From the NCBI GenBank assembly GCA_946533175.1, contig CAMNBS010000002.1, positions 1-36,321 on the forward strand: a stretch of DNA of 36,321 bases, in the 5' to 3' direction. The DNA comes from an uncultured Clostridia bacterium (GTDB lineage Bacteria > Bacillota_I > Bacilli_A > RF39 > UBA660). Positions within the stretch are counted from its first letter, which is position 1. Each line of letters opens with the position of its first letter. The position numbers and the translations under genes were made by a program. Below, piece by piece: positions 13,040-29,785 of this stretch. The notes under the pieces were generated by a model, which was given only the letters and a program-made list of their open reading frames with translations, searched no databases and was not told the origin of the DNA.

Positions 13040-13214
13040 GATATTATGTTGCTATATGTCCAGGAAACTATATTATAAACTTTGATGTTGCAATAATTAA
13101 TCCCTAATAAATGAATTAAAATTTGACGGAATTGTACTAAATTTCGTCTTTTTTATGCTATAATTAGATAGAAATGGAGTGATTCCTATGAATAATAAAA
13201 CTAATATTAACTGG
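13040..13214 (+). repeat. rbgA upstream/5'-end module, copy A
   Basis: Hairpin terminator GACGGAATT-N6-AATTTCGTC + T-run (13125-13154). Extended -10 TGCTATAAT (13156-13164). RBS GGAGTGAT. ATG 13188 encodes MNNKTNINWWY* (to 13223). Core AAAACTAATATTAACTGG at 13197-13214. Visibly homologous along its length to copies B and E. Confidence 0.85.
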
Positions 13215-13492
13215 TGGTATTGATTTATCTAACCTCTTTAATAAATCATTATAAAATAAGGGAAATTTAAAAAATGGATCTTGCATATTTAATATAAAAA
13301 ATAATTAAAAATGTACAAAAAACACCAAAAATTATTAAAAATGGTGCTTTTTTCATACATTTTTAATTAGGTGATGTTTTCAGCTAACCCCATTGAAAAA
13401 TAAAGAAATTATTCATTCAAAACAAATAGGAAAATAAAGAAAAATATAGTATAATATAAGTAGTTGATAAATCATGGTAAAGGGGGAATTAT

Positions 13493-14368
13493 ATGAATGA
13501 TAAATTAACAACTATTACAAATCTTTTTGAAGGAAAAGAAATAAGAAGTGTATGGGATTCTGAAAAAGAAGAATATTATTTTAGTGTAGTAGATGTGATT
13601 AATGCTTTAGCAGAACCTAAGGATGCAAGCGATTACTGGACAACCTTAAAACGAAGAATGATTAAAGAAGAAAAAAGTGAGATTCCGACAAATTGTCGGG
13701 AACTGAAAATGAAATCTTCTAAAGATGGTAAAATGTATAAAACTGATACTCTTGATACTGAAGGAATATTTAGATTGATTGAATCTGTTCCATCTAGTAA
13801 AGCTGAGCCTTTTAAGATGTGGTTAGCCTCCTTAGGAAAAGAAAGAATAGATGAGGTATTTGATCCAGAAATAGCAGTTAATAGGGCTGTAGAATATTAT
13901 CGTAAAAGAGGTTATGATGATAAATGGATTAAATCAAGACTAACTGGAATAGTTGATAGATTTAAATTAACTGATGTTTGGAAAGAATCAGGGATTACAA
14001 AAGACTATGAGTATGGAATTTTAACTAATGAAATTTATAAATCATGGTCAGGAATGAAAGCAAGTGAGTATAAAGCATATAAAGGTCTTAGAAAAGAATC
14101 TTTAAGAGATAATATGACAGATATTGAAGTAGCATTAACTGACTTAGGAGAAATAGCAACAAGAGAACTTGCTAAAGAACATAAACCATTTGGATTAGAA
14201 CAAAATAAAAGAATAGCGCAACGTGGAGGAAATATAGCTAAAATAACTAGAGATAATTTAGAAAAAGAGTTAGGTAGAACTGTCATCAGCAATAAGAATT
14301 CGTTAAATTATGAATATATAGATGAAAAATTATTAGAAGATAAAAAAGAGGTTGTAAGTAATGAATAA
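13493..14368 (+). CDS. Bro-N domain protein (phage/ICE antirepressor-like, DinD-like architecture)
   Basis: RBS AAGGGGG. N-terminus ITNLFEGKEIRSVWDSEKEEYYFSVVDVINAL matches the Bro-N pattern. The helical C-terminal half is as in Bro/KilA-type proteins of Firmicutes mobile elements. Confidence 0.7.
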   Translation: MNDKLTTITNLFEGKEIRSVWDSEKEEYYFSVVDVINALAEPKDASDYWTTLKRRMIKEEKSEIPTNCRELKMKSSKDGKMYKTDTLDTEGIFRLIESVPSSKAEPFKMWLASLGKERIDEVFDPEIAVNRAVEYYRKRGYDDKWIKSRLTGIVDRFKLTDVWKESGITKDYEYGILTNEIYKSWSGMKASEYKAYKGLRKESLRDNMTDIEVALTDLGEIATRELAKEHKPFGLEQNKRIAQRGGNIAKITRDNLEKELGRTVISNKNSLNYEYIDEKLLEDKKEVVSNE

Positions 14369-14415
14369 GTATAATATTAATGAATTAAGAGAACAAATTG
14401 GATAGATGTAAAAAT

Positions 14416-14628
14416 ATGGATTTAAAAGATGTTAGTCTTGATGATGTTGATGAAATATCTTCTATAAAAATTGATAAGAGAAAATCTAGTAATGAAAGAA
14501 TTTTAGATTTTTTGTCTAAAACTAAAAATCCATATATATTTAAGGTTAATAATAGATTAGTTAAAATCAGTTTTTCTGATAATAATAGAACAGGTGATGA
14601 TGCATTAACTAGTGTACTTAAGAATTAA
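14416..14628 (+). CDS. small DUF6870-like protein (typical cargo of Firmicutes integrative/conjugative elements), possibly frameshifted at its 5' end
   Basis: KNPYIFKVNNRLVKISFSD motif. No RBS before ATG 14416. A 14-codon ORF (14361-14405, MNKYNINELREQIG*) in another frame looks like the displaced original N-terminus. Confidence 0.4.
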   Translation: MDLKDVSLDDVDEISSIKIDKRKSSNERILDFLSKTKNPYIFKVNNRLVKISFSDNNRTGDDALTSVLKN

Positions 14629-14788
14629 TATAGATAAGGATGTAATGAGTAAAAATGAACTAAAAACACCTAAAATCATTAAAATAGGGACTTTTTTTTA
14701 TATTTTTGATGAGGTGATGTTTTCAACTAACCCCACCATAAAATAAGAGATTATGATAATTAAAATTATTTTAGAATAAAGTGATTTT

Positions 14789-14817
14789 TTGACACAATTG
14801 TTGGAAAGTGTTATAAT
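14789..14817 (+). promoter_or_regulatory. sigma-A promoter of the T-box/valS unit
   Basis: TTGACA (14789-14794), 17-nt spacer, TGTTATAAT with TATAAT at 14812-14817. Confidence 0.65.
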
Positions 14818-14829
14818 TTTTTCGTATTC

Positions 14830-15057
14830 AAAAAACGAGGAACAAGAGGAGTAGAATAGTTAGTAGCTATTAGGAATGAAAGGTCACCGACTGAAAGCCT
14901 TTCTTAGTGAAGAGTATTTGAAGGTAGCTTGGGAGTTGTATATCTGAAATAGTAGTAAGATATAATGTTAGTCGCATTAAGACTTCAAGGTAATAGAAAT
15001 ATTACAAATTAAGGTGGTACCACGAGCAATTCGTCCTTTATGGATGAGTTGCTTTTT
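14830..15057 (+). promoter_or_regulatory. T-box riboswitch leader, specifier most likely GUA (Val)
   Basis: Stem I with AGTA/GAA loop-E elements. Specifier loop TTGAAG-GTA-G, then CTTG pairing with CAAG (14843-14846). T-box sequence AATTAAGGTGGTACCACG at 15007-15024. Terminator GCAATTCGTCC-N5-GGATGAGTTGC + T6 (15025-15057), mutually exclusive with the antiterminator. Confidence 0.8.
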
Positions 15058-15165
15058 TAATTATTTAGGAGATGATTAATATGAAATTTATTTTTAAAGG
15101 TGATTATGTACGAGTCTAATTATTTTAATCGATTATAATTTTTAAAATAAGAAGGAGAGATTAAA

Positions 15166-17583
15166 ATGTTAGATAAAAAATATAATGCAAATGAAAAAGA
15201 AAATAAATGGTTAAATTATTGGAAAGATAATGGAATATATGATTTCAAACCAGATTACAGAGAAGTATATTCAATAGATACTCCTCCTCCAACAGTTAAT
15301 GGTAAGATTCATATAGGACATATATTTTCATATACGCAAACAGAAATGATTGCTAGATATAAAAGATTAAGTGGGTATAATGTATTCTATCCATTTGGTT
15401 TTGATGATAATGGATTACCTTCAGAAAGATTAGTTGAAAAAGAACAAGGTAAGAAAGCTCATGAAATTGGAAGAGAAGAATTTTCTAAATTATGTCATGA
15501 AACAACTGATAAATATGAAAGTGAATTTCAAGAATTGTTTAGTAAAATGGGTGTAAGTACTGATTGGAAATATCATTATAAAACAGTTAGTCCATCAACT
15601 ATTAAGATAAGTCAAAAATCATTCTTAGATTTAATTGATAAAGGACATTGTTATCATAAAGAATCACCAGCATTATGGTGCAATGAATGTTTAACTTCAA
15701 TAGCACAAGCTGAACTTGAAACAAAAACAATAAAAACAACATTTAACTATATTAATTTTAAAACTAAAGAAGATGGTGAAGAGTTTACTATAGCTACAAC
15801 AAGGCCCGAATTGTTACCAGCTATTGTATGTGTATTTGTAAATCCAAGTGATGAAGCACACAAGTCTTTAATTGGAAAAACTGCCCATATTCCAGTAATA
15901 GATGTTGAAGTTCCTATTATGGCAGATGAGAAGGTTGCTATCGATAAAGGTACCGGAGTAGTTATGTGTTGTACTTTCGGAGATCAAACAGATATTGAAT
16001 GGTGGAAGAAGTATAATTTACCACTTAAATATATATTTACTGATGATGGTAAAATTATTGATTCAGTTCCTAACTATGGTGGAATGAAAATCAAAGAAGC
16101 AAGAAAACAAATAATTGAAGACTTACAAGCTGGTGGTTATGTAGTTAAGATTGAAGAATTAGAGCATGAAGTTCAAACACATGAAAGATGTGGTAAAGAA
16201 GTTGAATATGCAGTTATGAAACAATGGTTTATTGATATCATGAATCATAAACAAGATTTCATTAAAATTGGTAATGAAATCAAATGGTATCCAGAACATA
16301 TGCATAATAGATATAATGAATGGGTTGAAAATGTTTTATGGGATTGGTGTATATCAAGACAAAGATATTTTGGCGTTCCATTCCCAGTTTGGTATTGCAA
16401 AAATTGTGGAGAACCAATTTTTGCAAATGAGAAAGATTTACCAGTTAATCCATTAATAGATAAATCTAAGAATGATAAATGTCCAAAATGTGGATGTACT
16501 GAATTTATTCCAGAAACAGATGTAATGGATACTTGGGCAACTTCTTCAGTAACACCATTAATTAATATGAGATATGGTGAAGAAGATAATTTTGAATCAA
16601 TTTTAAAACCAATGAGTTTAAGAACTAATGCTTCTGAAATTATTAGAACATGGGACTTTTATACAATAGTTAAGAGTTTCTATCATTTTGGAACTAGACC
16701 TTGGGATAATGTAATGATATCAGGATTTGTTATGGCTAACAAAGGAGAAAAAATAAGTAAGTCTAAAGGTAATAGTAAAGTAGATCCAATGGATCTTATT
16801 AATGAGTATTCAGCTGATGTATTAAGATATTGGGCTGGTACTGGAAGATTAGGTACCGATATCGTATTTAGTGATGAAACATTATTAAGAGGTAAGAAGT
16901 TAGTTAATAAGATTTGGAATGTTTCTAAATTTATTGAAATGCATTTACAAGATTATGAAGATAAAGAATTTAATGATTTTGAATATATTGATAAATGGAT
17001 ACTTGGTAAATATCAAGAAATGGAAAGAGGGTTCATTAAATATTTAGATGATTATGAAGTAGGATTAGCATTAAACTTACTCGAAAAGTTCTTCTGGAAC
17101 TTCTGTGATAATTATATTGAAATTGTTAAACATAGACTATATAGACCTGAAGAATTTGGAGATACTCCAAGATACTCAGGGCAAAAAACAGTTTATACTA
17201 TTCTTTATAAATTATTACAAGACTTTAGTATTTACTTCCCATATATAACTGAAGAAATTTATCAAGAATTATATCACGATAATAAATCAATTCATATAAC
17301 AGAAATTAAACCATTAAATTATAGTTTTGATAATGAAATTAAATGTGGTGATTTAATAATAGATATTATCAGTCAAGCTAGAGGAGAAAAATCAAATAAT
17401 AATTTATCTTTAAAGACACCAATTAAGAATTTAGATTTAAGTTTAAATAGTGAACTTAAAGAAGCAATTAATAAATCTATTAAAGATATTAAAGCAACAT
17501 TATTTATTAAGAATTTAAATATAAATGATATTGATAAAGATTATACTATAGATAAAATTGAGTTGGATTTAAGTGAAGAATAG
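15166..17583 (+). CDS. valS: valine--tRNA ligase, short (type-2, archaeal/actinobacterial-like) form
   Basis: RBS GAAGGAGAG. TPPPTVNGKIHIGHIFSYT (HIGH), FGFDDNGLPSE, CP1 editing region, KISKSKGN (KMSKS). 805 aa with no long C-terminal coiled coil. Confidence 0.8.
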   Translation: MLDKKYNANEKENKWLNYWKDNGIYDFKPDYREVYSIDTPPPTVNGKIHIGHIFSYTQTEMIARYKRLSGYNVFYPFGFDDNGLPSERLVEKEQGKKAHEIGREEFSKLCHETTDKYESEFQELFSKMGVSTDWKYHYKTVSPSTIKISQKSFLDLIDKGHCYHKESPALWCNECLTSIAQAELETKTIKTTFNYINFKTKEDGEEFTIATTRPELLPAIVCVFVNPSDEAHKSLIGKTAHIPVIDVEVPIMADEKVAIDKGTGVVMCCTFGDQTDIEWWKKYNLPLKYIFTDDGKIIDSVPNYGGMKIKEARKQIIEDLQAGGYVVKIEELEHEVQTHERCGKEVEYAVMKQWFIDIMNHKQDFIKIGNEIKWYPEHMHNRYNEWVENVLWDWCISRQRYFGVPFPVWYCKNCGEPIFANEKDLPVNPLIDKSKNDKCPKCGCTEFIPETDVMDTWATSSVTPLINMRYGEEDNFESILKPMSLRTNASEIIRTWDFYTIVKSFYHFGTRPWDNVMISGFVMANKGEKISKSKGNSKVDPMDLINEYSADVLRYWAGTGRLGTDIVFSDETLLRGKKLVNKIWNVSKFIEMHLQDYEDKEFNDFEYIDKWILGKYQEMERGFIKYLDDYEVGLALNLLEKFFWNFCDNYIEIVKHRLYRPEEFGDTPRYSGQKTVYTILYKLLQDFSIYFPYITEEIYQELYHDNKSIHITEIKPLNYSFDNEIKCGDLIIDIISQARGEKSNNNLSLKTPIKNLDLSLNSELKEAINKSIKDIKATLFIKNLNINDIDKDYTIDKIELDLSEE

Positions 17584-17618
17584 AATGGTCAGAATATTGA
17601 TTTGTTGCAAACTTACAA

Positions 17619-17642
17619 GTAGGAGAAATCCTACTTTTTTGA
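17619..17642 (+). terminator. intrinsic terminator after valS
   Basis: AGTAGGA-GAAA-TCCTACT followed by T6. Confidence 0.7.
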
Positions 17643-17906
17643 TATAATAATGGGAAGTATCATTTCTTTTATCGATATGGTATTAGTGATAATGGTGAAA
17701 AAACACTTAGCAATTTAGAAATTGCAAAGCTCGATGATATAGTTAGAATAAATCATATTGATAAATGGAATGGATATAATTCTCAAAACAAAGAAACTCC
17801 TAATGATGGGTTTATAATTCATATTGAATATATGGATGGAAAAAAGACAACATTTGATATTTATATTAGAAGAGATAAATATACAATAAAAGAAAAGAAT
17901 AATTAA
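17643..17906 (+). pseudogene. startless 3' gene fragment (unknown family)
   Basis: 87-codon open frame (..YRYGISDNGEKTLSNLEIAKLDDIVRINHIDKWNGYNSQNKETPNDGFIIHIEYMDGKKTTFDIYIRRDKYTIKEKNN*). It begins right after a TGA and has no start codon or RBS. Confidence 0.3.
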
Positions 17907-17918
17907 TCGCACTATTAT

Positions 17919-18095
17919 GATATTACGATTGATCATATGACCAGGAAATTATAATAAAACATTTGATGTTACAACATCTAACCCAACTTAAATAAATTAA
18001 AAATTGACGGAATTATACTAAATTTCGTCTTTTTTATGCTATAATTGATTAGAAACGGAGTGATTCCTATGGATAATAAAACTAATATAAACTGG
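17919..18095 (+). repeat. rbgA upstream/5'-end module, copy B
   Basis: Terminator hairpin 18006-18035. TGCTATAAT with TATAAT at 18040-18045. RBS GGAGTGAT. ATG 18069 encodes MDNKTNINWLRTI* (to 18110). Core AAAACTAATATAAACTGG at 18078-18095. Confidence 0.85.
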
Positions 18096-18295
18096 TTGAG
18101 AACAATTTAGTCAAGATCGACTCCAAAACCTTATAAAATAAGTGAAAAACAAAAAATAAATCATACATGTTTTATAATAAAATATATTAAAATAGATAAA
18201 AAATAATAAAAATTAAGTGATTTTAAGTAAAAATAGCTTAGGAATTGACATGGTGAGAACAGGTAGTCAAGACCAGATGAAAGAAGATGATAATT

Positions 18296-19052
18296 ATGGC
18301 AAATAATTTAGTAATTAGAAGCAGTAGTGCAGAATTTTTGATATTTGAAAGACAAACCCATGATAAGGGAATTCAAGTTAGATTTGAAAATGGAGATTTA
18401 TGGTTAACTCAAAAAGCTATGAGTGAATTATATGATTGTACAGCAGACAATGTTTCATTACATTTAAAAAATATATACAAAGACTATGAACTTTACAAAA
18501 ACTCAACTACCGAGGAATTCTCGGTAGTTCAAAAAGAAGGTAACAGAGAAGTAAGCGGTGGATTATGATTCAAAGGCACCAACAACAATTAAATTTTTTA
18601 AAAAAGTACAAAACAAAATGCATTATACTGTATCTCATCAAACTGCAGCTGAAATAATATATAATCGTGCTGATTCAAAAAAAGATAATATGGGGCTTAC
18701 CTCATGGAAGAATTCTCCTAATGGAAAAATTTTAGAAACTGATGTTGTAATTGCTAAAAATTATTTATCTAAAAATGAATTAGAAAGTTTAGAAAGAATA
18801 GTTTCGGCATTTTTAGATTTAGCAGAGAATAGGGCAAAGAGAAATATTCCAATGACAATGGAAGATTGGGCGACAAGAATTGATAAATATTTACTTGCTG
18901 ATGATTTAGATATATTAAAAGATGCTGGTAAAATATCTCATGAAATAGCGTGCGACAAAGCATTAACTGAATTTGAAAAATATAGAGTAAAACAAGATAA
19001 ATTATATAAATCAGATTTTGATTTATTAATGGAAGAAAGTGAAAAAATATGA
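18296..19052 (+). pseudogene. RhuM-family (virulence RhuM / Fic-associated) gene, split by internal deletion and frameshift
   Basis: The N-part (to 18568) has RFENGDLWLTQKAMSELYDCTADNVSLHLKNIY and FSVVQKEGNREV. The C-part (18558-19052) has FFKKVQNKMHYTVSHQTAAEIIY. Together about 250 aa in two frames, with the central segment of intact RhuM proteins missing. Confidence 0.65.
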
Positions 19053-19402
19053 AAATAAAATCATTATATATATGCGTTGATGATATGCAAAGGGCGATAA
19101 ATTTCTATACAGATTTCTTTGAGAAGAGTCCTATAAAAAATGATTCTATTTATTCTGTATTTGATATTGATGGTTTTAGATTTGGTTTATTTGCATATAA
19201 AAAAATGAAAGAGCCACATACTTTTGGAAGTAATTGTTTGCCTAGTATAGAAGTAGATAGTATAGAAACACTAAAAAGAAAAATAGAAAAGCTAGAGATT
19301 TGTTTTCCTTTAACTAAAATTGAAAGTAATTATGTAGTTGAATTTATTGATAGTGAAGGAAATCATATAGAATTAACAACCCCTATAAAAGGAAGTGATT
19401 AA
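19049..19402 (+). CDS. VOC (glyoxalase/bleomycin-resistance) family protein
   Basis: Start overlaps the RhuM stop (ATGA). Single beta-alpha-beta-beta-beta module pattern: LYICVDDMQRAINFY...FGLF...GNHIELTTP. Confidence 0.6.
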   Translation: MKIKSLYICVDDMQRAINFYTDFFEKSPIKNDSIYSVFDIDGFRFGLFAYKKMKEPHTFGSNCLPSIEVDSIETLKRKIEKLEICFPLTKIESNYVVEFIDSEGNHIELTTPIKGSD

Positions 19403-19464
19403 AATGAAAGAAGAAAAAGTGTCTTTAAACAAGCTAAAGATATTGAACAAATTATGAATAAATT

Positions 19465-19508
19465 AGGGAGGTAATACTCATGGATGAAAATAAAACTAAT
19501 ATAAACTG
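19465..19508 (+). repeat. rbgA 5'-end module, copy C (short)
   Basis: RBS GGGAGG. ATG 19480 encodes MDENKTNINCLVWI* (to 19524). Core AAAACTAATATAAACTG at 19492-19508. No terminator or -10 part. Confidence 0.75.
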
Positions 19509-19717
19509 TTTGGTATGGATTTAGTCAAACATTTTTATAAAACCCTATAAAATCAAGGGAAAATGAATGTTTACTTATTACATTTTTTTATTAAAAAAAG
19601 TAAAAAAAAACTAAAATTTGATAAAATTCGGTAAAAATCATCCAAAAATAGCAATATTTAAAAAGGGTGGTATTGACGGTCTAACTTTTAGAAAAAAGAG
19701 TGTTTTTATATAAATTT

Positions 19718-19744
19718 GTCAGATAGTTATATCTGACTTTTTTT
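19718..19744 (+). terminator. strong hairpin + T7 just upstream of the ParB-like gene
   Basis: GTCAGATA-GTTA-TATCTGAC followed by TTTTTTT. The context CTTTTTTTATGC resembles the terminator/-10 junction of the rbgA modules. Confidence 0.6.
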
Positions 19745-19766
19745 ATGCAAAAATTTAGGAGGATTT

Positions 19767-20141
19767 ATGAAAGAAGAGGTAATAGAAATTGATGTAAAAG
19801 ATATTAAAAAATTTCCAAATCATCCTTTTAAAATTACTAATGATCTTAATTATGAAGAATTAAGAAATAGCATTATGGAAAGTGGTGTATTAGTTCCTGC
19901 AATTGTTAGAAAGAGAGATGATGGAAAATATGAAATGTTATCTGGACATAGAAGAATGCAAATATGCAAAGAACAAGGAATAAAGAAAATTCCATGCATA
20001 GTTAAAAATATTTCAGATGAGGAAGCTATTGTCTTGATGGTAGATTCTAATCTTCAAAGAGAAAAAATATTACCAAGTGAAAAAGCAATGGCATATAAGA
20101 TGAAATATGATGCAATAAAATCTATGACACCATCGGTGTAA
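19767..20141 (+). pseudogene. ParB N-terminal-domain (ParB/Srx) protein, 3'-truncated
   Basis: RBS AGGAGG. PNHPFKI..., GVLVPAIVRK...YEMLSGHRRMQICKEQG, and VDSNLQREKILPSEKAMAYK are typical of ParB-like proteins of clostridial integrative elements. The HTH part (..[15 protein letters not shown]) continues only in another frame (about 20143-20213). Confidence 0.6.
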
Positions 20142-20223
20142 GATAAAAGAAAAGATGAAATATTAGGAGAGCAAGTTGGAGAAAGTAGAGAGCAAATAAG
20201 AAGATTTAGAAAATAATAATATA

Positions 20224-20790
20224 AGACCAGAAAGTTTAGATGAATATATTGGCCAAAGTGAAGTAAAAGAAAACATTAAAGTATTTATAGAAGCTGCAAA
20301 GCTTAGAAATGAACCACTTGATCATGTACTTTTATATGGTCCACCAGGACTTGGTAAAACAACTTTAGCAAATATAATAGCAAATGAATTAGGTGTTTCT
20401 TTAAAAACAGCATCGGGTCCTGCTATAGAAAAATCTGGCGATTTGGCAGCAATATTATCAACATTAGAACCAGGTGATGTATTATTTATTGATGAAATAC
20501 ATAGAATGCCAAGATTTATTGAAGAAATACTTTATCCTGCTATGGTAGATTTTACTTTAGATATAGTAGTTGGAAATGATACAAATACAAGAAGTATTAA
20601 AATTGATTTGCCTCCATTTACTTTAGTTGGAGCTACAACAAGAGCAGGTGATTTGACAAGTCCACTTCGTGATAGATTTGGTATTACTTGTAAATTAAAA
20701 TATTATGATGAAGATGAACTTCGTATGATTATTGAAAGAACAAGTCGTGTTCTTGATATGCCTATTTCTCATGAAGCAGCGATTTCACTT
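20224..20790 (+). pseudogene. ruvB: ruvB fragment (about residues 20-215 of Holliday junction helicase RuvB)
   Basis: [57 protein letters not shown]...[30 protein letters not shown]...[14 protein letters not shown]......[29 protein letters not shown]. The C-terminal third is absent. Boundaries approximate. Confidence 0.8.
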
Positions 20791-21694
20791 GCTAATTTAT
20801 TAAAACAAAAAGATTATAGTATAAAAGCTTTTCATATGAATTCTAAAGAATATTTTTCAAGAGGAATTAATTATTCTAATTGGGGATATGATAATTATTT
20901 TGGACTTCAGGATTTAGGAATATATTCTGATACATCATATCAGTTGGATAGAGAACTTATTCTTAATGAAACATTCTACAATGAAATGTTTAATAATAAT
21001 GGAAAATTTATGAATTACATTATTACTTATAGTAATCATTTACCTTTTGATGCTAAAAGAGGAGTATGTAATAAATTATTAAAACTTGATTATGAAAAAG
21101 AACTTTAAAATATTGATAATAGTGAAAAAAATGTATTTCTAGAGAGTTTAGAATTAACAGAAGAAGATTGTATTAAGAGACAAGCAAAAGAGACTGATTA
21201 TATGATATGGTTATTAATAAAAGCATTAAAAGATAATAATTTATATGATAATACAATAATTATTGCTTATGCTGATCATTATTTATATACTGTATCTGAT
21301 TATGAAATACTAAAAAAATGGTAAGAGTATAGAAACTAATTTAATTAATCATACACCATTCTTTATATGGAGTAAAAATTTAAAAAAGGAAGAAGTAAAA
21401 AAAGTTACAACACAAATGAATATTTTACCAACTGTTTTAAATTTACTTGGAATAGAATATAATGAAAAATGGTATATAGGGCAAGATATATTTTCAAAAA
21501 AAATTAAACCATTTGTAGTATTCCCTGATTTATCTTGGTATGATGGAAGTTATTATGTAGAAGATGGTAGTGTTGTTAATAATAAGAAAATATCTTCTGA
21601 ACTTTTAGAAGAAAAAAATAATTATGCTGAATATTTAATTAAAAAGAATGATTTAGTACTTAAATATAATTATTTTAAAGAAATGAGTAATTAA
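20791..21694 (+). pseudogene. LtaS-type sulfatase-domain gene, 5'-truncated, with an in-frame stop and a frameshift
   Basis: Fused in frame to the ruvB fragment at about 20785-20795 ([17 protein letters not shown]...ITYSNHLPF). TAA at 21106. Continues ..LYDNTIIIAYADHY.. to a frameshift in the A7 run near 21314. Then ..NHTPFFIWS...QMNILPTVLNLLGIEYN.. to 21694. Confidence 0.7.
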
Positions 21695-21775
21695 AAGACT
21701 TTGTTATAGGTAAAAAAAAGTCTTTCTTTTTGTGCGAATGTAATATATAATTATAATAGGTAGGAGGAGTGTTAA

Positions 21776-24568
21776 ATGATGGATGCAACTAAAAAAAGAA
21801 AATTAATAGTAAGTATTTTAGGAATAGTGGGAGTATTAAGTATTACACTAGGTGTTACTGTAGCATTCTTTAATTATACAAGAACAGGAAATGCTAATAC
21901 AATAAGTGTAGGAAGAATAGCTTTTAATTCAACTCAAGATGGAAGAATAAATTTAACAAATATATTTCCAATAGATAGTGAAGATATTGATAATGCTTTA
22001 GAAGAAGGAAATAACGTAACAATTAATATTAATGGGGATACAACATATCAATATGGAATAGAATATTTAGTTACAGCAGAAGATGTTAACATTACTGTTA
22101 ATAATAAAAAGGTACCATTAAATCTATATATAACAAGTACAACTGATTTAGGTAATAATGATCCTGATTATTTTGATAATCGTGGTGGAAATATGTCAAT
22201 GCATAAAGTTTTATCGGGAGGAGTTGTAGTAGATGGACAATATTTAGTTGTTGGTTATATTGCACCAGGACAAGAGGGAATAGAAGGAAATTTAAATATA
22301 AAGGCATATATTGATAAAGATAAAATAGCAATAACAGATACACCGGAAGAAAATATAGAATGGCAAAGAGGTAGAACTATATTTACAACGGAAGAATGGA
22401 ATAGTATTCAACAAGAAGGTCATGAATTATCCTTTAAAATAAGAGTAGAAGCGAATGAAGGAGTTTGGGTAGATCCATATACAACACCAAATTTAATGAA
22501 TAATATTAATATAAATAAAAGTGCAGTAAATATAAAAGAAATAAGGTTTATAGAAGAAACACCACTTAGAATGCAAAGAAGGTATGATGCTTCTGTTGGT
22601 GAAGAAAGTAATGGAACAAAAGCTGATTTAACATATCAAGATACTGGAAAAGTACTTGCATGGATAGAGCCGATGGAAGTAACCCCAACAGGAACAAGTA
22701 ATGAATTATTAAATATCAAACCAAAGTTTTTAGTTAATGAAGACACATCAAATAATCTTAAACAAATAGATAATGAACCTGCATATATATTATATATAGC
22801 AAGTAGTGGTAAGACAAAGTGGGTAACAGGCAATTCTTTATTTAAAGAATTCACAAGTGTGGAAAAAATCATATTTGAAAATGTTGATTCATCAAGTGTT
22901 ACTAGTATGTATGATATGTTTAATAATTGTAACAAGTTAAGAAGTATAATTGGATTAAATACATTAGATACAAGTAATGTTACAGATATGCAATATATGT
23001 TTTCAGGTTGTAGTAGCTTGACAAGTATTGATTTATCAGGATTAGGAAGCAATAATTTAAATGCTATAGGTTATATGTTTTATAATTGCAATGCTCTAAC
23101 TGAAATAATAATGAAAAATTTTAATTTTGGTCAAGTTAATTTTTATAATAATAGTAATTATTATTATGCATTTGCATATCTTCCAAATGTGGAAACAATA
23201 GATTTAACAAATGCCAATACTAGTGGTGTTACTAGCATGTATGATATGTTTTATAGTTGCACAAAATTAAAAAATATCATCGGTTTAAATACATTAGATA
23301 TAAGTAATGTTACAGATATGCGGTATATGTTTGCATATAGCGAAATAGAAAGTATTAATTTAAGTGGAATGAATATGAGTAGTGTAACTACTGTATATGA
23401 CATGTTTTACAGTTGTAAATCATTAGCATTAGTTAAGATAAATAACGCTAATTTACAAAATGTAACAGATATGCAATATATGTTCTCTGACTGTGATGCG
23501 CTTGTAAGTATTGATTTAAATAATTTAAATATTAATAGTGTACAAACAATGAATAGCATGTTTAGTGGATGTGATAATTTGGAAAGTGTTATATTTACTG
23601 GAATAGAAACAACAACATTAAGGGATATGTCAAATATGTTTTCTGGTTGTACGAAATTAATAAATGTAAATTTATCAGGATTAGGAGGAAACAATTTATA
23701 TAGTGTTGGTTATATGTTTTATAATTGTACTAGTTTAAAAAATATAAATATGTCTAATTTTAATTTTGGTGGAATTAATTCATTTGATGGTTCTTCAAGT
23801 ATTTTTTACCCATTAAAAGGTGTATTGGAAAGTATTAATTTAAGTGGAGCAAATTTTAGTGGACCTAATATATCATCTAGTAGTTTTTATGCAATGTTTC
23901 AATATTTTTCAAAATTAAAGACTGTTGATTTAAGTAATGCAAACACAAGTAAAGTAACAAGTATGCAAGACCTATTTGGTCATTGTCCATTATTAGAAAA
24001 TGTTAATTTAGCTGGAATCGATACGAGTAATGTGACAAACATGCAGTATATGTTTGATAATTGTGATTCTATAACAAAACTAGATTTAAAACATTTAAAT
24101 ACAAGTAAAGTAACTAATATGTATTATATGTTTAGATATATGGACAATTTAGAAGAAATTGATATATCTGGGTGGGGAAATAATAGTTTATCTAATACAT
24201 ATGGTATGTTTGCTTCTGATATTAAATTAAAAACTATAATTATGAATAATTTTAACTTTGGAACAAGCGCATATGGGGCATTTTATAGTGCGAGTGGCGT
24301 TGAAGAAGTTTATCTAAGTAATGCTATAACAAACAAAGTGACTGATATGAGTCTTATGTTTGATGGTTGTAGAAACTTAAAAACAATATATGTATCAAAT
24401 ACATGGGATACAACTAAAGTAACGGATTCAGGTAGTATGTTTTCTAATTGTACATCTTTAGTAGGTGGAGCAGGAACTACCTTTAATGCTAGCTATATTG
24501 ACAAAACAAGAGCAATCATTGATGGTGGTACAAGTAATCCCGGTTACTTAACATTAAAGACAAATTAA
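21776..24568 (+). CDS. BspA-family leucine-rich-repeat surface protein (DUF285 / Mycoplasma-type LRR) with TasA-like N-module
   Basis: RBS AGGAGG. TM, then AFFNYTRTGNANTISVGRIAF. More than 15 repeats of the DUF285 pattern (..VT.M..MF..C..L..I.L....T..). C-terminal SLVGGAGTTFNASYIDKTRAIIDGGTSNPGYLT signature. Confidence 0.85.
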   Translation: MMDATKKRKLIVSILGIVGVLSITLGVTVAFFNYTRTGNANTISVGRIAFNSTQDGRINLTNIFPIDSEDIDNALEEGNNVTININGDTTYQYGIEYLVTAEDVNITVNNKKVPLNLYITSTTDLGNNDPDYFDNRGGNMSMHKVLSGGVVVDGQYLVVGYIAPGQEGIEGNLNIKAYIDKDKIAITDTPEENIEWQRGRTIFTTEEWNSIQQEGHELSFKIRVEANEGVWVDPYTTPNLMNNININKSAVNIKEIRFIEETPLRMQRRYDASVGEESNGTKADLTYQDTGKVLAWIEPMEVTPTGTSNELLNIKPKFLVNEDTSNNLKQIDNEPAYILYIASSGKTKWVTGNSLFKEFTSVEKIIFENVDSSSVTSMYDMFNNCNKLRSIIGLNTLDTSNVTDMQYMFSGCSSLTSIDLSGLGSNNLNAIGYMFYNCNALTEIIMKNFNFGQVNFYNNSNYYYAFAYLPNVETIDLTNANTSGVTSMYDMFYSCTKLKNIIGLNTLDISNVTDMRYMFAYSEIESINLSGMNMSSVTTVYDMFYSCKSLALVKINNANLQNVTDMQYMFSDCDALVSIDLNNLNINSVQTMNSMFSGCDNLESVIFTGIETTTLRDMSNMFSGCTKLINVNLSGLGGNNLYSVGYMFYNCTSLKNINMSNFNFGGINSFDGSSSIFYPLKGVLESINLSGANFSGPNISSSSFYAMFQYFSKLKTVDLSNANTSKVTSMQDLFGHCPLLENVNLAGIDTSNVTNMQYMFDNCDSITKLDLKHLNTSKVTNMYYMFRYMDNLEEIDISGWGNNSLSNTYGMFASDIKLKTIIMNNFNFGTSAYGAFYSASGVEEVYLSNAITNKVTDMSLMFDGCRNLKTIYVSNTWDTTKVTDSGSMFSNCTSLVGGAGTTFNASYIDKTRAIIDGGTSNPGYLTLKTN

Positions 24569-24649
24569 AAAAATTGTGTATAATAAACACAATTTTTTTA
24601 TATCTTTTTTTCTCTATTATATTATCATTAGTATGAAAGGGATTGTAGT

Positions 24650-26083
24650 ATGAGTAGTTTTTTTAATTCTCTAATTAAAACTATTGGTAGTTGGTATAAT
24701 AGTGGTTCTAGTATTCTATGGTGGGTATACCATATACTTGCCATTTTAGGTATATATAAAACTTTTTATTTAATAATTGGTATCTTTTTTACAAGAATAT
24801 TTCCTAAAGCTAAAAATAATCATAAATATGCTATTGTAATTGCAACAAGAAATGAAGAAAAAGTTATTGGAAATTTATTGGATAGTATTAATAAACAAGA
24901 TTATCCAAAAGATTTAATTACTACTTTTGTCATTTGTGATAATTGTACTGATAATACAAAAAAGGTTAGTGAAAAGCATGGTGCTATATGTTATAAAAGA
25001 CATGATTTAAAGAATAAAACAAAGGGGTTTGCTTTAAAATATTTATTTGAGTGTATAGAGCGTGACTATAAAATTAATAGTTTCGAAGGATACTTTGTTT
25101 TTGATGCTGGTGAAAAGATAATTACATCATATCGTAATACTAAAAATTTTGATGAGAATTGGATTGCATCAACTTACGCAATTCATTGGCTTAGAAGCAT
25201 TAGAACAGCGCATCGTGCTAGAAGTATTTTAAGACTTGCTACTAATATTCAAGGAACTGGTTTTTTATTTAGTAATGAACTTGTAAAAAATGGTTGGAAA
25301 TATACTTCATTAACAGAAGATAGAGCATTTACTGTTGATGCTGTTAAAGAGGGATACCATATTTCTTATAATGATAAAGCTATGTTTTATGATGAACAAC
25401 CTGTTAATTTGAAAATAGCATTACGCCAGCGTCTTCTTTGGTCTAATGGTCATTTACAGGCATTCATTGAAACAGGACTAGGTTTATTTAAAAATATTTT
25501 TTTTGGTAAGATGTTTCGTAAAAATAAACAAAATGTTAAAAGTGGTTTTTTATTAAAAATAATCGAATCAATACGACATCGTTTTGCATCGTTTGATATA
25601 TTAATGCTTATGCTACCAAGTAGTGTTATTTATTTTCTTTTATGGTTTATCTTTTCATGTTTATTATATAGTAATAATGCCTATATCGTTGGTATTAATG
25701 GTGTTAATATTTTCCAGGGTGGAACAATACTAGCAGGTTTACTTCGAAGTATAACAGATATATATGTTTATGTAAGTCCAGGTATTGAATCTTTGTTTAT
25801 GGGATTTATTTTAACAATATGGTTACGTATTTTTTATTTAATAGGAAGATATATTGAAAATATGTGGATGGCTATTTATATTTTCTTTGTTGAACATAAA
25901 AGAATAAAAAAGAATGATTCATGGATTGAGCATTTTAAAAGAAATAAAAAAATAAAAAAAATAACCAAAGAAGTTTTGCAAGAATTAATTGATGTTATTT
26001 ATATAACAAACGAAGGTAATGTAGAAATTACATTTAAATATAAAAATTTATATGAAGATGCTCTGAGGTATCTAAATAATTAA
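24650..26083 (+). CDS. family-2 glycosyltransferase (membrane, processive-type), probably inactive, with a chimeric 3' end derived from a large serine recombinase
   Basis: GT2 motifs YAIVIATRNEE, FVICDNCTD, TSYRN.KNF, GTGF, LTEDR and the Q(R)RLLW-type motif QRLLWSNG. The expected FDAD(N) DxD reads FDAGEKIITSYRN, suggesting an in-frame deletion of about 20 aa. The last ~55 aa resemble a DUF4368-type recombinase tail. Confidence 0.6.
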   Translation: MSSFFNSLIKTIGSWYNSGSSILWWVYHILAILGIYKTFYLIIGIFFTRIFPKAKNNHKYAIVIATRNEEKVIGNLLDSINKQDYPKDLITTFVICDNCTDNTKKVSEKHGAICYKRHDLKNKTKGFALKYLFECIERDYKINSFEGYFVFDAGEKIITSYRNTKNFDENWIASTYAIHWLRSIRTAHRARSILRLATNIQGTGFLFSNELVKNGWKYTSLTEDRAFTVDAVKEGYHISYNDKAMFYDEQPVNLKIALRQRLLWSNGHLQAFIETGLGLFKNIFFGKMFRKNKQNVKSGFLLKIIESIRHRFASFDILMLMLPSSVIYFLLWFIFSCLLYSNNAYIVGINGVNIFQGGTILAGLLRSITDIYVYVSPGIESLFMGFILTIWLRIFYLIGRYIENMWMAIYIFFVEHKRIKKNDSWIEHFKRNKKIKKITKEVLQELIDVIYITNEGNVEITFKYKNLYEDALRYLNN

Positions 26084-26090
26084 AATTTTG

Positions 26091-26187
26091 TGTTATAATT
26101 GATAAGTAAAGTTTCTTACAAAAAGGAGTGATTCTTATGAGTAATACAAATGGAAATGCTGGGCTAGACAAAACCAATATCAACTGG
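26091..26187 (+). repeat. rbgA 5'-end module, copy D
   Basis: TGTTATAAT with TATAAT at 26094-26099. RBS AAAGGAGTGAT. ATG 26137 encodes MSNTNGNAGLDKTNINWLITVYSNFWRNPLFIRTCED* (to 26250). Core AAAACCAATATCAACTGG at 26170-26187. Confidence 0.8.
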
Positions 26188-26385
26188 TTGATTACAGTTT
26201 ATAGTAACTTTTGGAGAAATCCTTTATTTATAAGAACTTGCGAAGATTAATGTCTTACATGCTTACAATAAAAAATATTAAAAATTAATAAAAAATAGTC
26301 AAAAATGACTAAAATATCCTAAAAATAGCGTAGGAATTAAAGTATTGATTACGGGACAGTAACTCACAGTAAAAGAGGTGAAATT

Positions 26386-26724
26386 ATGAAACATGAAATG
26401 AAATTAAATAATGGACCATACACAAATATAAAAAATGGTACAAAAACAATTGAGTTAAGATTAAATGATGAAAAGAGACAATTATTAAAGATAAAAGATT
26501 TAATTGAATTTACTAATAGAGAAACTTTAGAACAAATGTTAGTTGAAATTGAAAATTTATATCATTATCCATCTTTTGAAGAACTGTATAAACATTTTGA
26601 TAAGGTGGCTATGGGATATAAAAATAACGAAATTGCTAATCCAAAAGATATGGAAGAATACTATTCAAAAGATGAACAAGAAAAATATGGTGTATTAGGA
26701 ATAGAGATAAAAAAAATAAAATAG
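26386..26724 (+). CDS. ASCH (PUA-like) domain protein
   Basis: RBS AGAGGTG. MKLNNGPYTNIKNGTKTIELRLNDEKRQLLKIKDLIEF...YHYPSFEELY...YYSKDEQEKYGVLGIEI matches the small stand-alone ASCH family pattern. Confidence 0.6.
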   Translation: MKHEMKLNNGPYTNIKNGTKTIELRLNDEKRQLLKIKDLIEFTNRETLEQMLVEIENLYHYPSFEELYKHFDKVAMGYKNNEIANPKDMEEYYSKDEQEKYGVLGIEIKKIK

Positions 26725-26774
26725 TAAGTACAGTTTTAATACTATAATTATGTATTGATTTAAAGGAGGTTTTG

Positions 26775-27554
26775 ATGATGATATTTTTAAGTCATAATTA
26801 TAAAGATAAGGATATAGTCGAACCAATTGCTATAAAATTGAAAGAAATATATGGTCAAGAAAATATTTTTTATGATTCTTGGTCAATTAAACCAGGTGAA
26901 AGTATAATTGGAAAAATGGATGAAGGCCTTTCCAAGTGTAAATGGTTTTTCTTCTTTATTAGTAATAATTCATTAAATAGTTCTATGGTGGGGTTGGAAT
27001 GGCAAAGTGCTTTATATAAAGCCACAAAAGAAGGAATAAAATTTGTACCAATAAAAATTGATGATTGTTTTCCGCCACAAATATTGACTAATACTTTATA
27101 TTTGGATATGTATGTGGATGGTTTTGATAACACTTTAAGAAACATGTTTGACTTGATTGATAATAATGATACCAAAGAATATAATAAAAAATTTAATAAC
27201 TTGTTATGTAGTATCGAAAGAATCAATAATAAAGAATTAAAAATAAAGATTGAGGTTTTAAAATTAATTGAACCAAATCCAAGCTTTGCTTTTGCTTTTA
27301 GTAATAGTTTAGATGATGTTTCCATAGAATTAACATCTGATTCTATGTCTATGAATAGTTCTGGAACATTTTCAAACGGTAAAAATCTTAAATTGTGTAG
27401 GATTAGTAGGGTACTTACTAAGGGATTCCCGTATGAAGTAATTTTAAAAAGTAAAGTTGGTTTTAAAAATAATGATTTGGAAATATGGCATCAAGTTGGA
27501 AAAAACGATTTTGTTTTGCTAACTAATATAAACGAGTATAGTTCAATAAACTAG
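26775..27554 (+). CDS. TIR-domain protein with an uncharacterised beta-rich C-terminal domain
   Basis: RBS AAGGAGG at 26763-26769. IFLSHNYKDKDIVEPIAIKL...IFYDSWSIKPGESI...CKWFFFFISNNSLNSSMVGLEWQSAL is the TIR_2 pattern, including the conserved Glu. The ~130-aa C-terminal half has no motif I recognise. Confidence 0.75.
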   Translation: MMIFLSHNYKDKDIVEPIAIKLKEIYGQENIFYDSWSIKPGESIIGKMDEGLSKCKWFFFFISNNSLNSSMVGLEWQSALYKATKEGIKFVPIKIDDCFPPQILTNTLYLDMYVDGFDNTLRNMFDLIDNNDTKEYNKKFNNLLCSIERINNKELKIKIEVLKLIEPNPSFAFAFSNSLDDVSIELTSDSMSMNSSGTFSNGKNLKLCRISRVLTKGFPYEVILKSKVGFKNNDLEIWHQVGKNDFVLLTNINEYSSIN

Positions 27555-27563
27555 TTTATTCTA

Positions 27564-27756
27564 CATTAGAATGAGATATTATAGCCATATGACCTGGAAA
27601 CTATAGACTAAATTTGATTACGGTTTTTAGTAACCATTAAAATGACTTAAAAATGGACGAAAATATACTAAATTTCGTCTTTTTTATGGTATAATTTTAT
27701 TGATTTATATGAAAGGAGTGATCCAAATGAACGAAAATAAAACTAATATAAACTGG
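27564..27756 (+). promoter_or_regulatory. rbgA upstream/5'-end module, copy E (the functional one): terminator, extended -10 promoter, RBS, start
   Basis: Hairpin GACGAAA..TTTCGTC + T-run (27656-27685). TGGTATAAT with TATAAT at 27690-27695. RBS GGAGTGAT. ATG 27727. Core AAAACTAATATAAACTGG at 27739-27756. Confidence 0.8.
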
Positions 27757-28578
27757 TATCCTGGCCATATGGCTAAGACCAAGAGAGAAATTAAAGAAAA
27801 GTTGGCATTAATTGACATAGTATATGAAATAATTGATTCACGAATGCCAAAGTCAAGTAGAATTATAGATTTAGATGAATTGATTAATGATAAACCAAGA
27901 ATAATGATTTTTACGAAATATGATTTATGTGATAAAAGTATTACTGATAAATATGTTAATGAATATCAAAAAAAATATATTGTTATAAAAACTAATTTAA
28001 AAGAAAATAGTAATATTAATAAATTAATTCTTGATAAAACAGAAGAAATATTAAAAAGCATTAATGAAAAAAGATTGGAAAAAGGACTTAATAAAAGAAA
28101 TTATAGAGCTTTAGTAATTGGAGTTCCTAATGTTGGTAAAAGCACTTTAATTAATCGTTTAGCAGAACGTAATGTTGCTAAAACGGGTAATGTAGCTGGA
28201 GTTACTAAAAACTTGTCATGGATAAAGCTTAATAAGAATATAGAACTTTTGGATACACCAGGTATATTGTGGCCAAAAATAGAAGATGAAATAGTTGGTT
28301 TAAATCTTGCTTCTTTATCAAGTATTAAAGAAGAAATTTTAAATAAAGAGGATATATCAATGTATATAATTAGGACATTATATAATTATTATCCAAAGTT
28401 ATTATTAGATAAATATAAAATAGATAATATTGATGATTTTAATATTGTTTTTGATAGTATTGGAAAAAGAAGAGGTTGTCTTGAAAAAGGTGGTGTTGTA
28501 AATTTGGATAAAGTTTATACCATTATTATAAATGACTTAAAAGAAGGTAAGATTGGTAAAATAACCTTTGATAGATAA
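27727..28578 (+). CDS. rbgA: ribosome biogenesis GTPase A (YlqF/RbgA)
   Basis: INWYPGHMAKTKREIKEKL..ID.V.EI.DSRMP.SSR, circularly permuted G motifs (TKYDL then GVPNVGKSTLIN, DTPG). ATG 27727 preferred over the ORF-track start at 27700. Confidence 0.92.
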   Translation: MNENKTNINWYPGHMAKTKREIKEKLALIDIVYEIIDSRMPKSSRIIDLDELINDKPRIMIFTKYDLCDKSITDKYVNEYQKKYIVIKTNLKENSNINKLILDKTEEILKSINEKRLEKGLNKRNYRALVIGVPNVGKSTLINRLAERNVAKTGNVAGVTKNLSWIKLNKNIELLDTPGILWPKIEDEIVGLNLASLSSIKEEILNKEDISMYIIRTLYNYYPKLLLDKYKIDNIDDFNIVFDSIGKRRGCLEKGGVVNLDKVYTIIINDLKEGKIGKITFDR

Positions 28579-28586
28579 AGAACTAT

Positions 28587-28613
28587 AGAATTATTTTTGT
28601 AATTCTTTTTTTT
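28587..28613 (+). terminator. intrinsic terminator after rbgA
   Basis: AGAATTA-N6-TAATTCT followed by a T-run. Confidence 0.6.
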
Positions 28614-28780
28614 ACATTTGAAAAGGTGGAATAGAAAAATGAAAGTTTTATGTATTGACATAAACATAAAAATATGATTTTTTATTTGTAGAGAATATAG
28701 TAAATTATATTTTTGAAAGTGATGCTGAAAAAGTATTATCTAAAAATGCTGAAAGATTTTTTAGAATATAAGGAGGATTT

Positions 28781-29314
28781 ATGTATTATAAAAAAATAGA
28801 AGGAGAAAAAATTTATTTATCACCAATAAATAGTGATGATTATGAAATATATACAAATTGGATGAATAATTATGATACAGCTAAGTTTATAACCCAATAT
28901 ACAAATATAATAACAGAAAAATCTGAAAAGGATTATTTAGAAAGAATAGAAAATGAAAAATATAATTTTGCTATTGTTGTGAAAGAAAATAATAAATTAG
29001 TTGGGAATATTAGTTTAATGGATTATGATCAATTAAATCAACGGGCAGAATTAGGAATCTTTATAGGAAATAGTGAAGATAGGCATAAAGGATATGGAAC
29101 CGAAGCAATCCAATTGCTTTTAAATTATGCATTTAATTACTTGAATTTAAATAATATATTTTTGAAAGTTTATGATTTAAATAAAAATGCCATTAATGTT
29201 TATAAAAAAATTGGATTTAAGCAAATCGGAAAACGGCATGAATGCTTTTATTTTAATGGACAATTAACTGATGAAATATATATGGAAATTTTAAAAAAAG
29301 AGTATATCAAGTAA
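28781..29314 (+). CDS. GNAT family N-acetyltransferase (RimJ/SpeG-like)
   Basis: RBS AAGGAGG. Motif A region HKGYGTEAIQLLLNYAFNYLNLNNIFLKVYDLNKNAINVYKKIGF. Confidence 0.75.
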   Translation: MYYKKIEGEKIYLSPINSDDYEIYTNWMNNYDTAKFITQYTNIITEKSEKDYLERIENEKYNFAIVVKENNKLVGNISLMDYDQLNQRAELGIFIGNSEDRHKGYGTEAIQLLLNYAFNYLNLNNIFLKVYDLNKNAINVYKKIGFKQIGKRHECFYFNGQLTDEIYMEILKKEYIK

Positions 29315-29770: not shown

Positions 29771-29785
29771 TTATGGAGGTGAATA

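Follow-up and report, generated by a model that had tools for sequence, protein, structure and literature searches.

A tandem array of small cassettes at the 5' end of rbgA in an uncultured gut bacterium, and its probable assembly by a large serine recombinase

We describe a cassette array at the start of rbgA in DNA from an uncultured Clostridia bacterium (GTDB lineage Bacillota_I; Bacilli_A; RF39; UBA660). The stretch analyzed, called the window here, comprises 36,321 nt (contig CAMNBS010000002.1 of assembly GCA_946533175.1, positions 1 to 36,321) and is part of a 73-kb gut-metagenome scaffold. At least four small integrative cassettes, and probably five, lie in tandem at the start of the essential ribosome-assembly gene rbgA (window positions 13054-27757). 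The reading that we favor, and consider fairly probable, is that these cassettes were stacked there by a large serine recombinase, whose catalytic role we infer from its linkage to rbgA in related genomes, and that the recombinase was later lost.

Results

Five copies of the rbgA start

Exactly five matches to the 17-nt core AAAACYAATATHAACTG lie in the window, all on the plus strand (Table 1); shuffled sequences give an expectation of 0.02, and none of 100 shuffles reached five. The core marks five co-oriented copies of the rbgA start, A to E. Copy E opens the intact rbgA, and the others open short open reading frames (ORFs) that end in a stop codon and read MNNKTNINWWY in A, MDNKTNINWLRTI in B, MDENKTNINCLVWI in C and, in its first part, MSNTNGNAGLDKTNINWLITVY in D. 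Similarity of the copies to rbgA stops directly after CTGG, at the Trp10 codon. Copies A, B and E have in common a long upstream module of about 150-160 nt (identity 85% for A/B, 76% for A/E and 74% for B/E), in which a hairpin and T-run precede an extended -10 element (TGCTATAAT in A and B, TGGTATAAT in E). Copy D retains an extended -10 element (TGTTATAAT) and the ribosome-binding site (RBS), and copy C is reduced to the RBS and codons, with no promoter. All of this agrees with the original prediction, made from the letters of the window alone, which had listed the five copies with exactly these short ORFs, assigned the same parts to each copy and placed the loss of similarity at Trp10. Its further claim that each cassette sits behind its own rbgA promoter holds only in part, given that copy C has none and that each cassette also has a conserved leader of its own. 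Promoter-like sites were not enriched in a simple sigma-70 scan (113 found, 123 expected), so our promoter calls are based only on the conserved extended -10 motifs.

Anatomy of a cassette

For comparison we used RbgA relatives (54-79% identity) from 80 species-level metagenome-assembled genomes (MAGs) from gut and rumen, labeled as uncultured Bacilli, 'Erysipelotrichaceae' or 'Tenericutes'; individual loci carry L numbers. Alignment of 77 internal copies from related loci revealed a conserved module right after the break, TTGAT.AC.ATTTA...CTTATAAAATAAGG...ATCTTGCA... This cassette leader is about 200 nt long, contains phased A-tracts and terminates in a conserved RBS and ATG. The leader forms the left end of a cassette, and a portable rbgA start, consisting of an RBS and the codons up to Trp10, forms the right end; in copies A, B and E the right-end module additionally has the terminator hairpin and extended -10 promoter. 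Because the right end of a cassette replaces the rbgA start, insertion never inactivates rbgA.

Sensitive profiles built for these sites identified exactly four two-sided sites and the terminal rbgA site in the window, and no further copies upstream of the ABC exporter gene that precedes site A. Across all loci, 138 of 138 profile hits were on the plus strand, and they lay upstream of rbgA in the 80 rbgA-anchored loci. The module is thus not a repeat dispersed over unrelated loci, an explanation that the original prediction had considered. All 77 or more internal sites break at one exact nucleotide position. When 115 positions of the internal sites were scanned for dyad symmetry, the best center fell between the T and the first G of CTGG (z = 3.5); at the terminal site no dyad center lies there. 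As judged from sequence, the internal junctions are complete, two-sided attP-like sites and the rbgA-proximal junction is attB-like. RNAalifold found no consensus structure in 85 sites (0 pairs). We rejected the leader as a structured RNA or attC-like hairpin, as its CCTTAT/ATAAGG helix shows no covariation and observed values were not above those of shuffles.

Insertion and sharing of cassettes

In L036 the ancestral order rplS-lepB-rbgA is intact, with 108 nt between the end of lepB and the ATG of rbgA, which constitutes an empty site. The distance from lepB to rbgA is 1.4-9 kb in other relatives and 20.9 kb in the window. Cassette DNA of the window is 83-97% identical to that of distant species. 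For rbgA DNA the corresponding values are only 68-71% in those distant species that match best and 76-80% in the two closest species. For example, the Bro-N gene of cassette 1a has 92.7% nucleotide identity to L046, and the RhuM gene of cassette 2 has 83-84% identity to RhuM cassettes of six other loci.

Further evidence for insertion comes from a comparison of the window with L024. The last cassette of L024 is 94% identical to cassette 3 of the window over the left 300 nt and 92% identical over the right 163 nt, with different cargo, and the region of site C is 94% identical over 300 nt to L024:8910-9206. The D-type leader is joined to a working rbgA in L024 (CTGG followed by TATCC) and to cassette 4 in the window (CTGG followed by TTGAT). 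This before-and-after pair indicates that cassette 4 was inserted exactly after CTGG, at the Trp10 codon. Together with the empty site and the shared cassettes, it supports the central proposal of the original prediction, namely that elements bringing a replacement RBS and start codons (with terminator and promoter in three of the five copies) were inserted one after another, site-specifically, at the 5' end of rbgA. The empty site and the variable cassette sets that the prediction had expected among relatives are both present. No similarity to known plasmids or phages was found. An extrachromosomal vehicle was considered and rejected; three pattern matches in IMG/VR, each 25 nt long, proved to be coincidental and lie in unrelated phages of 39% GC.

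Arrays across the clade

Sites were counted in the 48 species-level loci with at least 2 kb of sequence upstream of rbgA, and 36 of these carry 1-7 internal sites. The units between sites have a median length of 1166 bp, their ORFs are mostly on the plus strand (133 versus 7 on the minus strand), and most cassettes have no recombinase. Cargo in related loci includes RhuM, GNAT acetyltransferases, Bro-N/KilA-N, ASCH, NUDIX, NADAR, helix-turn-helix, beta-lactamase and McrB-like proteins. Among the few minus-strand array genes is an IS110-family transposase within a cassette (L046:1962-3278). In 21 of the 80 MAGs, L003, L005, L006, L012, L016, L017, L019-L021, L029, L047 and L048 among them, the contig ends at most 500 nt upstream of rbgA; short-read assemblies are systematically broken there by the repeated sites or by strain heterogeneity. 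The first 30 nt of rbgA (ATGAATGAAAATAAAACTAATATAAACTGG, window 27727-27756, encoding MNENKTNINW) are nearly invariant in most of the species L002-L081, with proteins 54-62% identical, and the start of this essential gene looks homogenized by mobile DNA.

A large serine recombinase linked to rbgA

Intact large serine recombinases of about 410 aa, with Resolvase, Recombinase and Zn_ribbon_recom domains, are encoded inside the arrays of L026, L004 and L050 (at L026:6234-7469 the three domains match with E values of 2.5e-17, 5e-23 and 2e-9, respectively). Their best match in the PDB is the catalytic domain of TnpX (E 2.7e-20). Scores against the NCBIfam Ccr models lie below the cut-offs (CcrB 107 bits, cut-off 900; CcrC 71, cut-off 900; CcrA 62, cut-off 700), and the array recombinases are not orthologues of Ccr or XisF. 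A metagenome scan with the recombinase alignment yielded 80 homologue loci, 26 of low GC content and 54 of higher GC content. In 13 of the 26 low-GC loci rbgA lies downstream on the same strand, 15-1500 nt from the recombinase stop to the ATG, and six more have sites; rbgA or sites are therefore adjacent in 19 of 26 low-GC loci, compared to 0 of 54 higher-GC loci. Contigs from IMG/VR replicate the linkage, with rbgA downstream in five of the closest low-GC homologues. In elements with the recombinase directly beside rbgA, the leader is specific to the element (e.g., MNNQDNEKVFQKNQINW), and attL and attR have only about 10 nt in common, an overlap that would suit a serine recombinase.

The intact recombinase genes of L050 and L082 stop 43 nt before the rbgA ATG. 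The window holds a remnant in a comparable position, the end of ORF 24650-26083, which stops 54 nt before the ATG of copy D; in addition to the match listed in Table 1, it matches the C-termini of the L004 and L050 recombinases. The original prediction had reported that the window has no integrase. This is correct for intact recombinases, but it overlooked this serine-recombinase C-terminus, fused to the ORF that ends before copy D. The later loss of the recombinase that it had proposed is supported, with only a 3' remnant surviving in the window.

A scan for tyrosine recombinase motifs in 81 loci and the window found none in or upstream of any array. The only tyrosine recombinases found nearby are of the XerC type, encoded in 12 loci at a distance of 4-7 kb downstream of rbgA; in L007, the one locus examined, XerC belongs to the housekeeping string rbgA-rnhB-topA-x-xerC-secDF. 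The analogy with elements of the ICESt1 type drawn in the original prediction, and with tyrosine-integrase elements such as Tn5253, is therefore not supported, since no tyrosine integrase is linked to any array and a large serine recombinase lineage is associated with the arrays instead. Upstream of the L026 array, L026:2024-5465 encodes an ATPase that resembles FtsK/TraG by eye and a second serine recombinase of 558 aa, 27% identical to the array type, and may be a larger mobilizable element docked at the same locus.

Cargo of the window array

Table 1. Sites, cargo and flanking genes of the rbgA cassette array (positions are those of the window)
Feature	Positions	Strand	Details
lepB-like signal peptidase	6363-6875	+	Pfam Peptidase_S26; preceded by rplS 6000-6338 (Ribosomal_L19); ancestral upstream neighbor of rbgA and outer limit of the variable region
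ABC exporter, directly 5' of site A	11336-13021	+	Pfam ABC_tran; 93% nucleotide identity to L054:119-866
Site A, attL-type	13054-13473	+	hairpin and T-run 13125-13148; extended -10 13156-13164; ATG 13188; core 13197-13213, then cassette leader; predicted crossover TG 13212-13213; nhmmer 13161-13303, E 2e-22
Cassette 1a cargo	13493-14628	+	Bro-N protein 13493-14368 (PADLOC candidate PDC-S13); DUF6870 protein 14398-14628
Probable decayed cassette boundary	14650-14774	+	partial leader, no core; repeat D9 13329-13403 versus 14672-14746, 76% identity; weak leader-profile match, E 7e-4
Cassette 1b cargo	14829-17583	+	T-box leader 14829-15041 (Rfam RF00230, 105 bits); complete valine-tRNA ligase 15166-17583 (NCBIfam PRK13208, 998 bits, cut-off 738)
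Site B, two-sided internal	17935-18409	+	hairpin and T-run 18006-18029; extended -10 18037-18045; ATG 18069; core 18078-18094, then leader; nhmmer 18041-18184, E 1e-22
Cassette 2 cargo	18287-19402	+	RhuM-family gene, split by a frameshift, 18287-18568 and 18558-19052 (PADLOC PDC-S05); glyoxalase/VOC protein 19049-19402
Site C, two-sided internal	19455-19723	+	left half only RBS 19467-19475, ATG 19480 and core 19492-19508, then leader; nhmmer 19455-19600, E 3e-25
Cassette 3 cargo and debris	19767-25834	+	ParB_N 19767-20141; RuvB_N fragment fused to sulfatase fragment 20443-21108; ORF fragment 21416-21694; DUF285/leucine-rich-repeat surface protein 21776-24568; family-2 glycosyltransferase from 24650
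Large serine recombinase gene, 3' remnant	25835-26083	+	in-frame fusion to the glycosyltransferase ORF; weak DUF4368 match; tblastn E 2e-5 to the C-terminus of the remnant L004:1258-1410
Site D, two-sided internal, variant leader	26084-26513	+	extended -10 26091-26099; ATG 26137; core 26170-26186, then leader; nhmmer 26112-26278, E 3e-18
Cassette 4 cargo	26386-27554	+	ASCH protein 26386-26724; TIR-domain protein 26772-27554 (PADLOC PDC-S66 / TIR-NLR-like)
Site E, terminal, attB/attR-type	27609-27757	+	hairpin and T-run 27656-27679; extended -10 27687-27695; ATG 27727; core 27739-27755; nhmmer 27701-27757, E 3e-11
rbgA, intact target gene	27727-28578	+	Pfam MMR_HSR1

Cassettes 1, 2 and 4 are flanked by att sites and have no recombination or transfer genes, as is characteristic of cis-mobilizable elements (CIMEs). 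No conjugation module was found in the window or among the top families of 110 cassette ORFs from related loci. Going by family matches, the cargo consists of accessory genes, several of which resemble candidate anti-phage families: the RhuM, Bro-N and TIR proteins match PADLOC candidate defense families. The original prediction had noted that all cargo between the copies lies on the rbgA strand. This is true of the credible ORFs, but it is no stronger than the background (95% of array genes on the plus strand versus 92% in these genomes, p = 0.22), and for this reason we rejected co-orientation as evidence of promoter capture.

The count of probably five cassettes depends on the partial leader at 14650-14774, a probable decayed fifth boundary, which divides cassette 1 into 1a and 1b. 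The T-box of cassette 1b was the only element above the gathering threshold in an Rfam scan; there are no tRNA genes. The only other class-I synthetase seen on the scaffold (L163:15264-17654) has an editing-domain match of the leucyl-tRNA synthetase type. The cassette-borne valS may therefore be the only valS of the genome, or it may be a second copy able to confer inhibitor resistance. If the cassette valS were the sole copy, an essential gene would be embedded in mobile DNA.

The two ORFs of the split RhuM gene encode 93 aa and 164 aa, and an intact version of 348 aa forms a cassette at L004:6172-7218 (84% nucleotide identity). In the debris of cassette 3 (20443-21694), a RuvB P-loop fragment is in frame with a sulfatase-family fragment, and the next ORF, of 92 aa, has no family match. 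The DUF285/leucine-rich-repeat protein has 930 aa and accounts, with its internal DNA repeats D1-D3, D6 and D10, for most of the other repeats in the window.

Surroundings of the array

Between lepB and site A lie 6.3 kb without recognizable sites; window 6904-11032 covers a pyrK-like/gltD-like pair and dxs (minus strand), followed by the ABC exporter. This stretch may be an older insertion or rearrangement. The exporter itself was probably acquired horizontally as part of the mobile region: the matching fragment in L054 also directly precedes the first site of that locus, and the RbgA proteins of L054 and the window are only 54% identical. Variation is seen at a second spot, 3' of rbgA. In the closest relative, L002, hrcA directly follows rbgA, and the GNAT acetyltransferase gene of the window (28781-29314) is missing together with about 1.1 kb of the interval from rbgA to hrcA (28579-29785).

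Discussion

Proposed mechanism and alternatives

We propose that strand exchange would occur at the TG of the Trp10 codon and that the enzyme would be a large serine recombinase of the lineage encoded, in related genomes, within the rbgA-adjacent unit. The element's right end would supply the rbgA start and thereby regenerate the target. Because the incoming left half-site resembles the chromosomal one, the junction on the rbgA side would remain a usable target, such that new units would insert beside rbgA and shift older units upstream. Older units would lose the recombinase and come to depend on its supply in trans. The window keeps only the 3' recombinase remnant of cassette 3, suggesting that its array is now non-autonomous and mobile only when a recombinase is provided in trans. 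A wider proposal, which we offer tentatively and regard as somewhat likelier to be wrong than right, is that a clade of uncultured low-GC gut and rumen Bacilli possesses an integron-like gene-capture platform that arose independently of integrons. In this platform, a large serine recombinase would insert cassettes of about 1 kb at the TG of the Trp codon that opens the conserved WYPGHM motif of rbgA. Each cassette would bring a conserved leader and a spare start that regenerates the target and maintains rbgA expression; arrays of at least eight cassettes would build up and pass from species to species, and a recombinase provided in trans could excise or reorder them with no need for a directionality factor.

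Several observations weigh against assigning the arrays to this recombinase. The dyad symmetry at the break is modest (9.5 of 22 positions, compared to a background of 6.6), and no intact recombinase is encoded at scaffold positions 2.7-58 kb. Seven of the 26 low-GC recombinase loci have neither rbgA nor a site adjacent, though most of these are short contigs. The recombinase gene has at least two placements, at the right end and abutting rbgA (L050 type) or at the left end after a site (L026 type). Units with a recombinase mostly have variant leaders, compared to the canonical MNENKTNINW leader of recombinase-less cassettes, and the two kinds, canonical-leader cassettes and variant-leader recombinase elements, may represent separate classes. 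Given this mismatch, action of these enzymes on canonical sites is putative. No excision circles or strain-level polymorphism were seen, and exact-protein look-ups gave only short contigs of the same species with the same gene order, and for one protein no record. Finally, the conserved flanking modules of 250-350 nt would also allow RecA-mediated exchange.

This last point underlies a rather unlikely alternative, in which, however the junctions first arose, the recombinase-less cassettes now spread and reshuffle by RecA homologous recombination, for example after transformation, with the left module (45-160 nt) and the leader (about 200 nt) serving as portable flanking homology and no site-specific enzyme dedicated to them. 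Module identity is 74-97% over 150-300 nt, both within a species and between species, most cassettes have no recombinase, and a near-invariant rbgA start in front of divergent proteins is consistent with repeated gene conversion. Against it, 77 or more internal sites break at a single exact position with dyad symmetry centered on it, the roughly 10 nt common to attL and attR of recombinase-adjacent elements are too few for RecA, and the origin of the junctions between leader and rbgA start is left unexplained. We consider it improbable that ICEs (integrative and conjugative elements) or IMEs (integrative and mobilizable elements) of the Tn5253 or ICESt type integrated serially at an attB in the 5' end of rbgA by means of tyrosine integrases and decayed to CIME-like remnants. 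No tyrosine recombinase was found in or upstream of arrays in 81 loci and the window, the median unit of 1.17 kb is far too small, no conjugation or relaxase genes were seen among the 110 cassette ORFs, and the association with a serine recombinase is specific. These findings stand against the fact that tyrosine integrases of the Tn5253 family do target the 5' end of rbgA in streptococci, where the element restores the coding sequence, and that ParB_N, Bro-N and DUF6870 belong to the accessory genes typically carried by integrative elements. In pneumococcal RbgA the att boundary probably falls at the same Trp codon.

Another conceivable route, very improbable in our estimation, is that the core is a dif-like site at which host XerC/XerD insert and stack cassettes, as with integrative mobile elements exploiting Xer (IMEX). 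It would fit the XerC-like gene located 4-7 kb downstream of rbgA in 12 loci and the core TAATATAAACT, which presumably resembles the XerD arm of Bacillus subtilis dif (9 of 11 positions). However, conserved synteny accounts for where the Xer gene lies in L007, the one locus examined of the 12, no Xer gene is present in the rbgA neighborhood of the window, the left arm lacks a dif-like palindrome, and it is with a serine recombinase that the arrays specifically co-occur. Least credible is a purely local duplication of the rbgA promoter and start with vertical inheritance of the intervening genes. Direct repeats with 74-85% identity within one locus would be expected from such a process, but it is effectively refuted by the empty site and variable content among relatives, by cassettes common to distant species at an identity far above that of the backbone, and by the L024/window pair, in which variant leader D is of the same type as the functional rbgA start of another species. 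Stacking by a large serine recombinase remains the explanation that we prefer.

If this explanation is correct, the arrays would represent a second, independently evolved cassette-array solution, distinct from both integrons and the staphylococcal cassette chromosome (SCC), in which a mobile unit donates the translation start, and often the promoter, of an essential gene. The first ten codons of that gene would effectively be owned and homogenized by mobile DNA. The arrays would be a major route by which accessory and candidate-defense genes flow in an uncultured, little-known lineage of the gut and rumen, and would explain why the contigs of 21 of 80 MAGs break at rbgA. The compact recombinase/att pairs, with a landing site that regenerates itself, would be of interest for genome engineering.

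Comparison with known systems

Full-text literature searches did not turn up any account of serine-recombinase elements at rbgA, or of cassette arrays there. Use of the gene as an integration target is documented: in streptococci the attB of Tn5253 comprises 63 nt upstream and the first 20 nt of the rbgA coding sequence, which the element restores (PMC6079316, PMC4701971), in agreement with the original prediction, which had named rbgA as a target of streptococcal elements. ICEs of the Tn5253/Tn5252 type thus use the same end of the same gene, with an att site that spans upstream sequence and first codons and a coding sequence that is restored. They differ in having a tyrosine integrase and Xis, in being conjugative, single and 20-65 kb in size, compared to units of about 1 kb here, in arrays that reach eight or more sites. 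The CIMEs of the ICESt1/ICESt3 family are likewise att-flanked tandem units without recombination or transfer genes that are thought to be mobilizable by an incoming element. In that system, however, the integrase is a tyrosine recombinase, the target is the 3' end of fda and there are typically one or two large units, in contrast to many units of about 1 kb across the clade studied here, where a serine recombinase is implicated.

The original prediction had also called the arrangement integron-like, which is apt for its form only. As in chromosomal integrons, the cassettes are co-oriented, mostly contain a single gene, are bounded by sites and are inserted beside a fixed primary site, and the cargo includes acetyltransferases, small enzymes and proteins of unknown function. 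Unlike integrons, the rbgA arrays have no IntI and no folded attC-like hairpin sites, their primary site is located inside an essential gene's start, and the cassettes have expression signals of their own.

By analogy, the closest known counterparts are SCC, SCCmec, psiSCC and the enterococcal cassette chromosome (ECC), rather than integrons or accretion of the ICESt1 type. SCC and ECC elements use Ccr large serine recombinases, form tandem units, include recombinase-less units that are mobilized in trans and carry accessory and defense-type cargo (PMC11470126, PMC6222049). Common to both systems are a large serine recombinase (inferred here), insertion at the very end of a housekeeping gene, which is not inactivated, a regenerated site, tandem composite units between direct-repeat att sites, units without a recombinase, and enrichment of accessory and defense-type genes in the cargo. 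SCC inserts at the 3' end of rlmH (orfX), whereas the target here is the 5' end of rbgA, so that the element must supply an RBS, start codons and often a promoter, none of which is needed at the 3' end of a gene. SCC units measure 24-68 kb, compared to a median of 1.2 kb here; in the rbgA arrays a leader of about 200 nt is conserved in every unit, the recombinase is no orthologue of Ccr, and the hosts are a clade of uncultured low-GC gut and rumen Bacilli. The rbgA cassette arrays are apparently a so far undescribed, miniature relative of the staphylococcal cassette chromosome.

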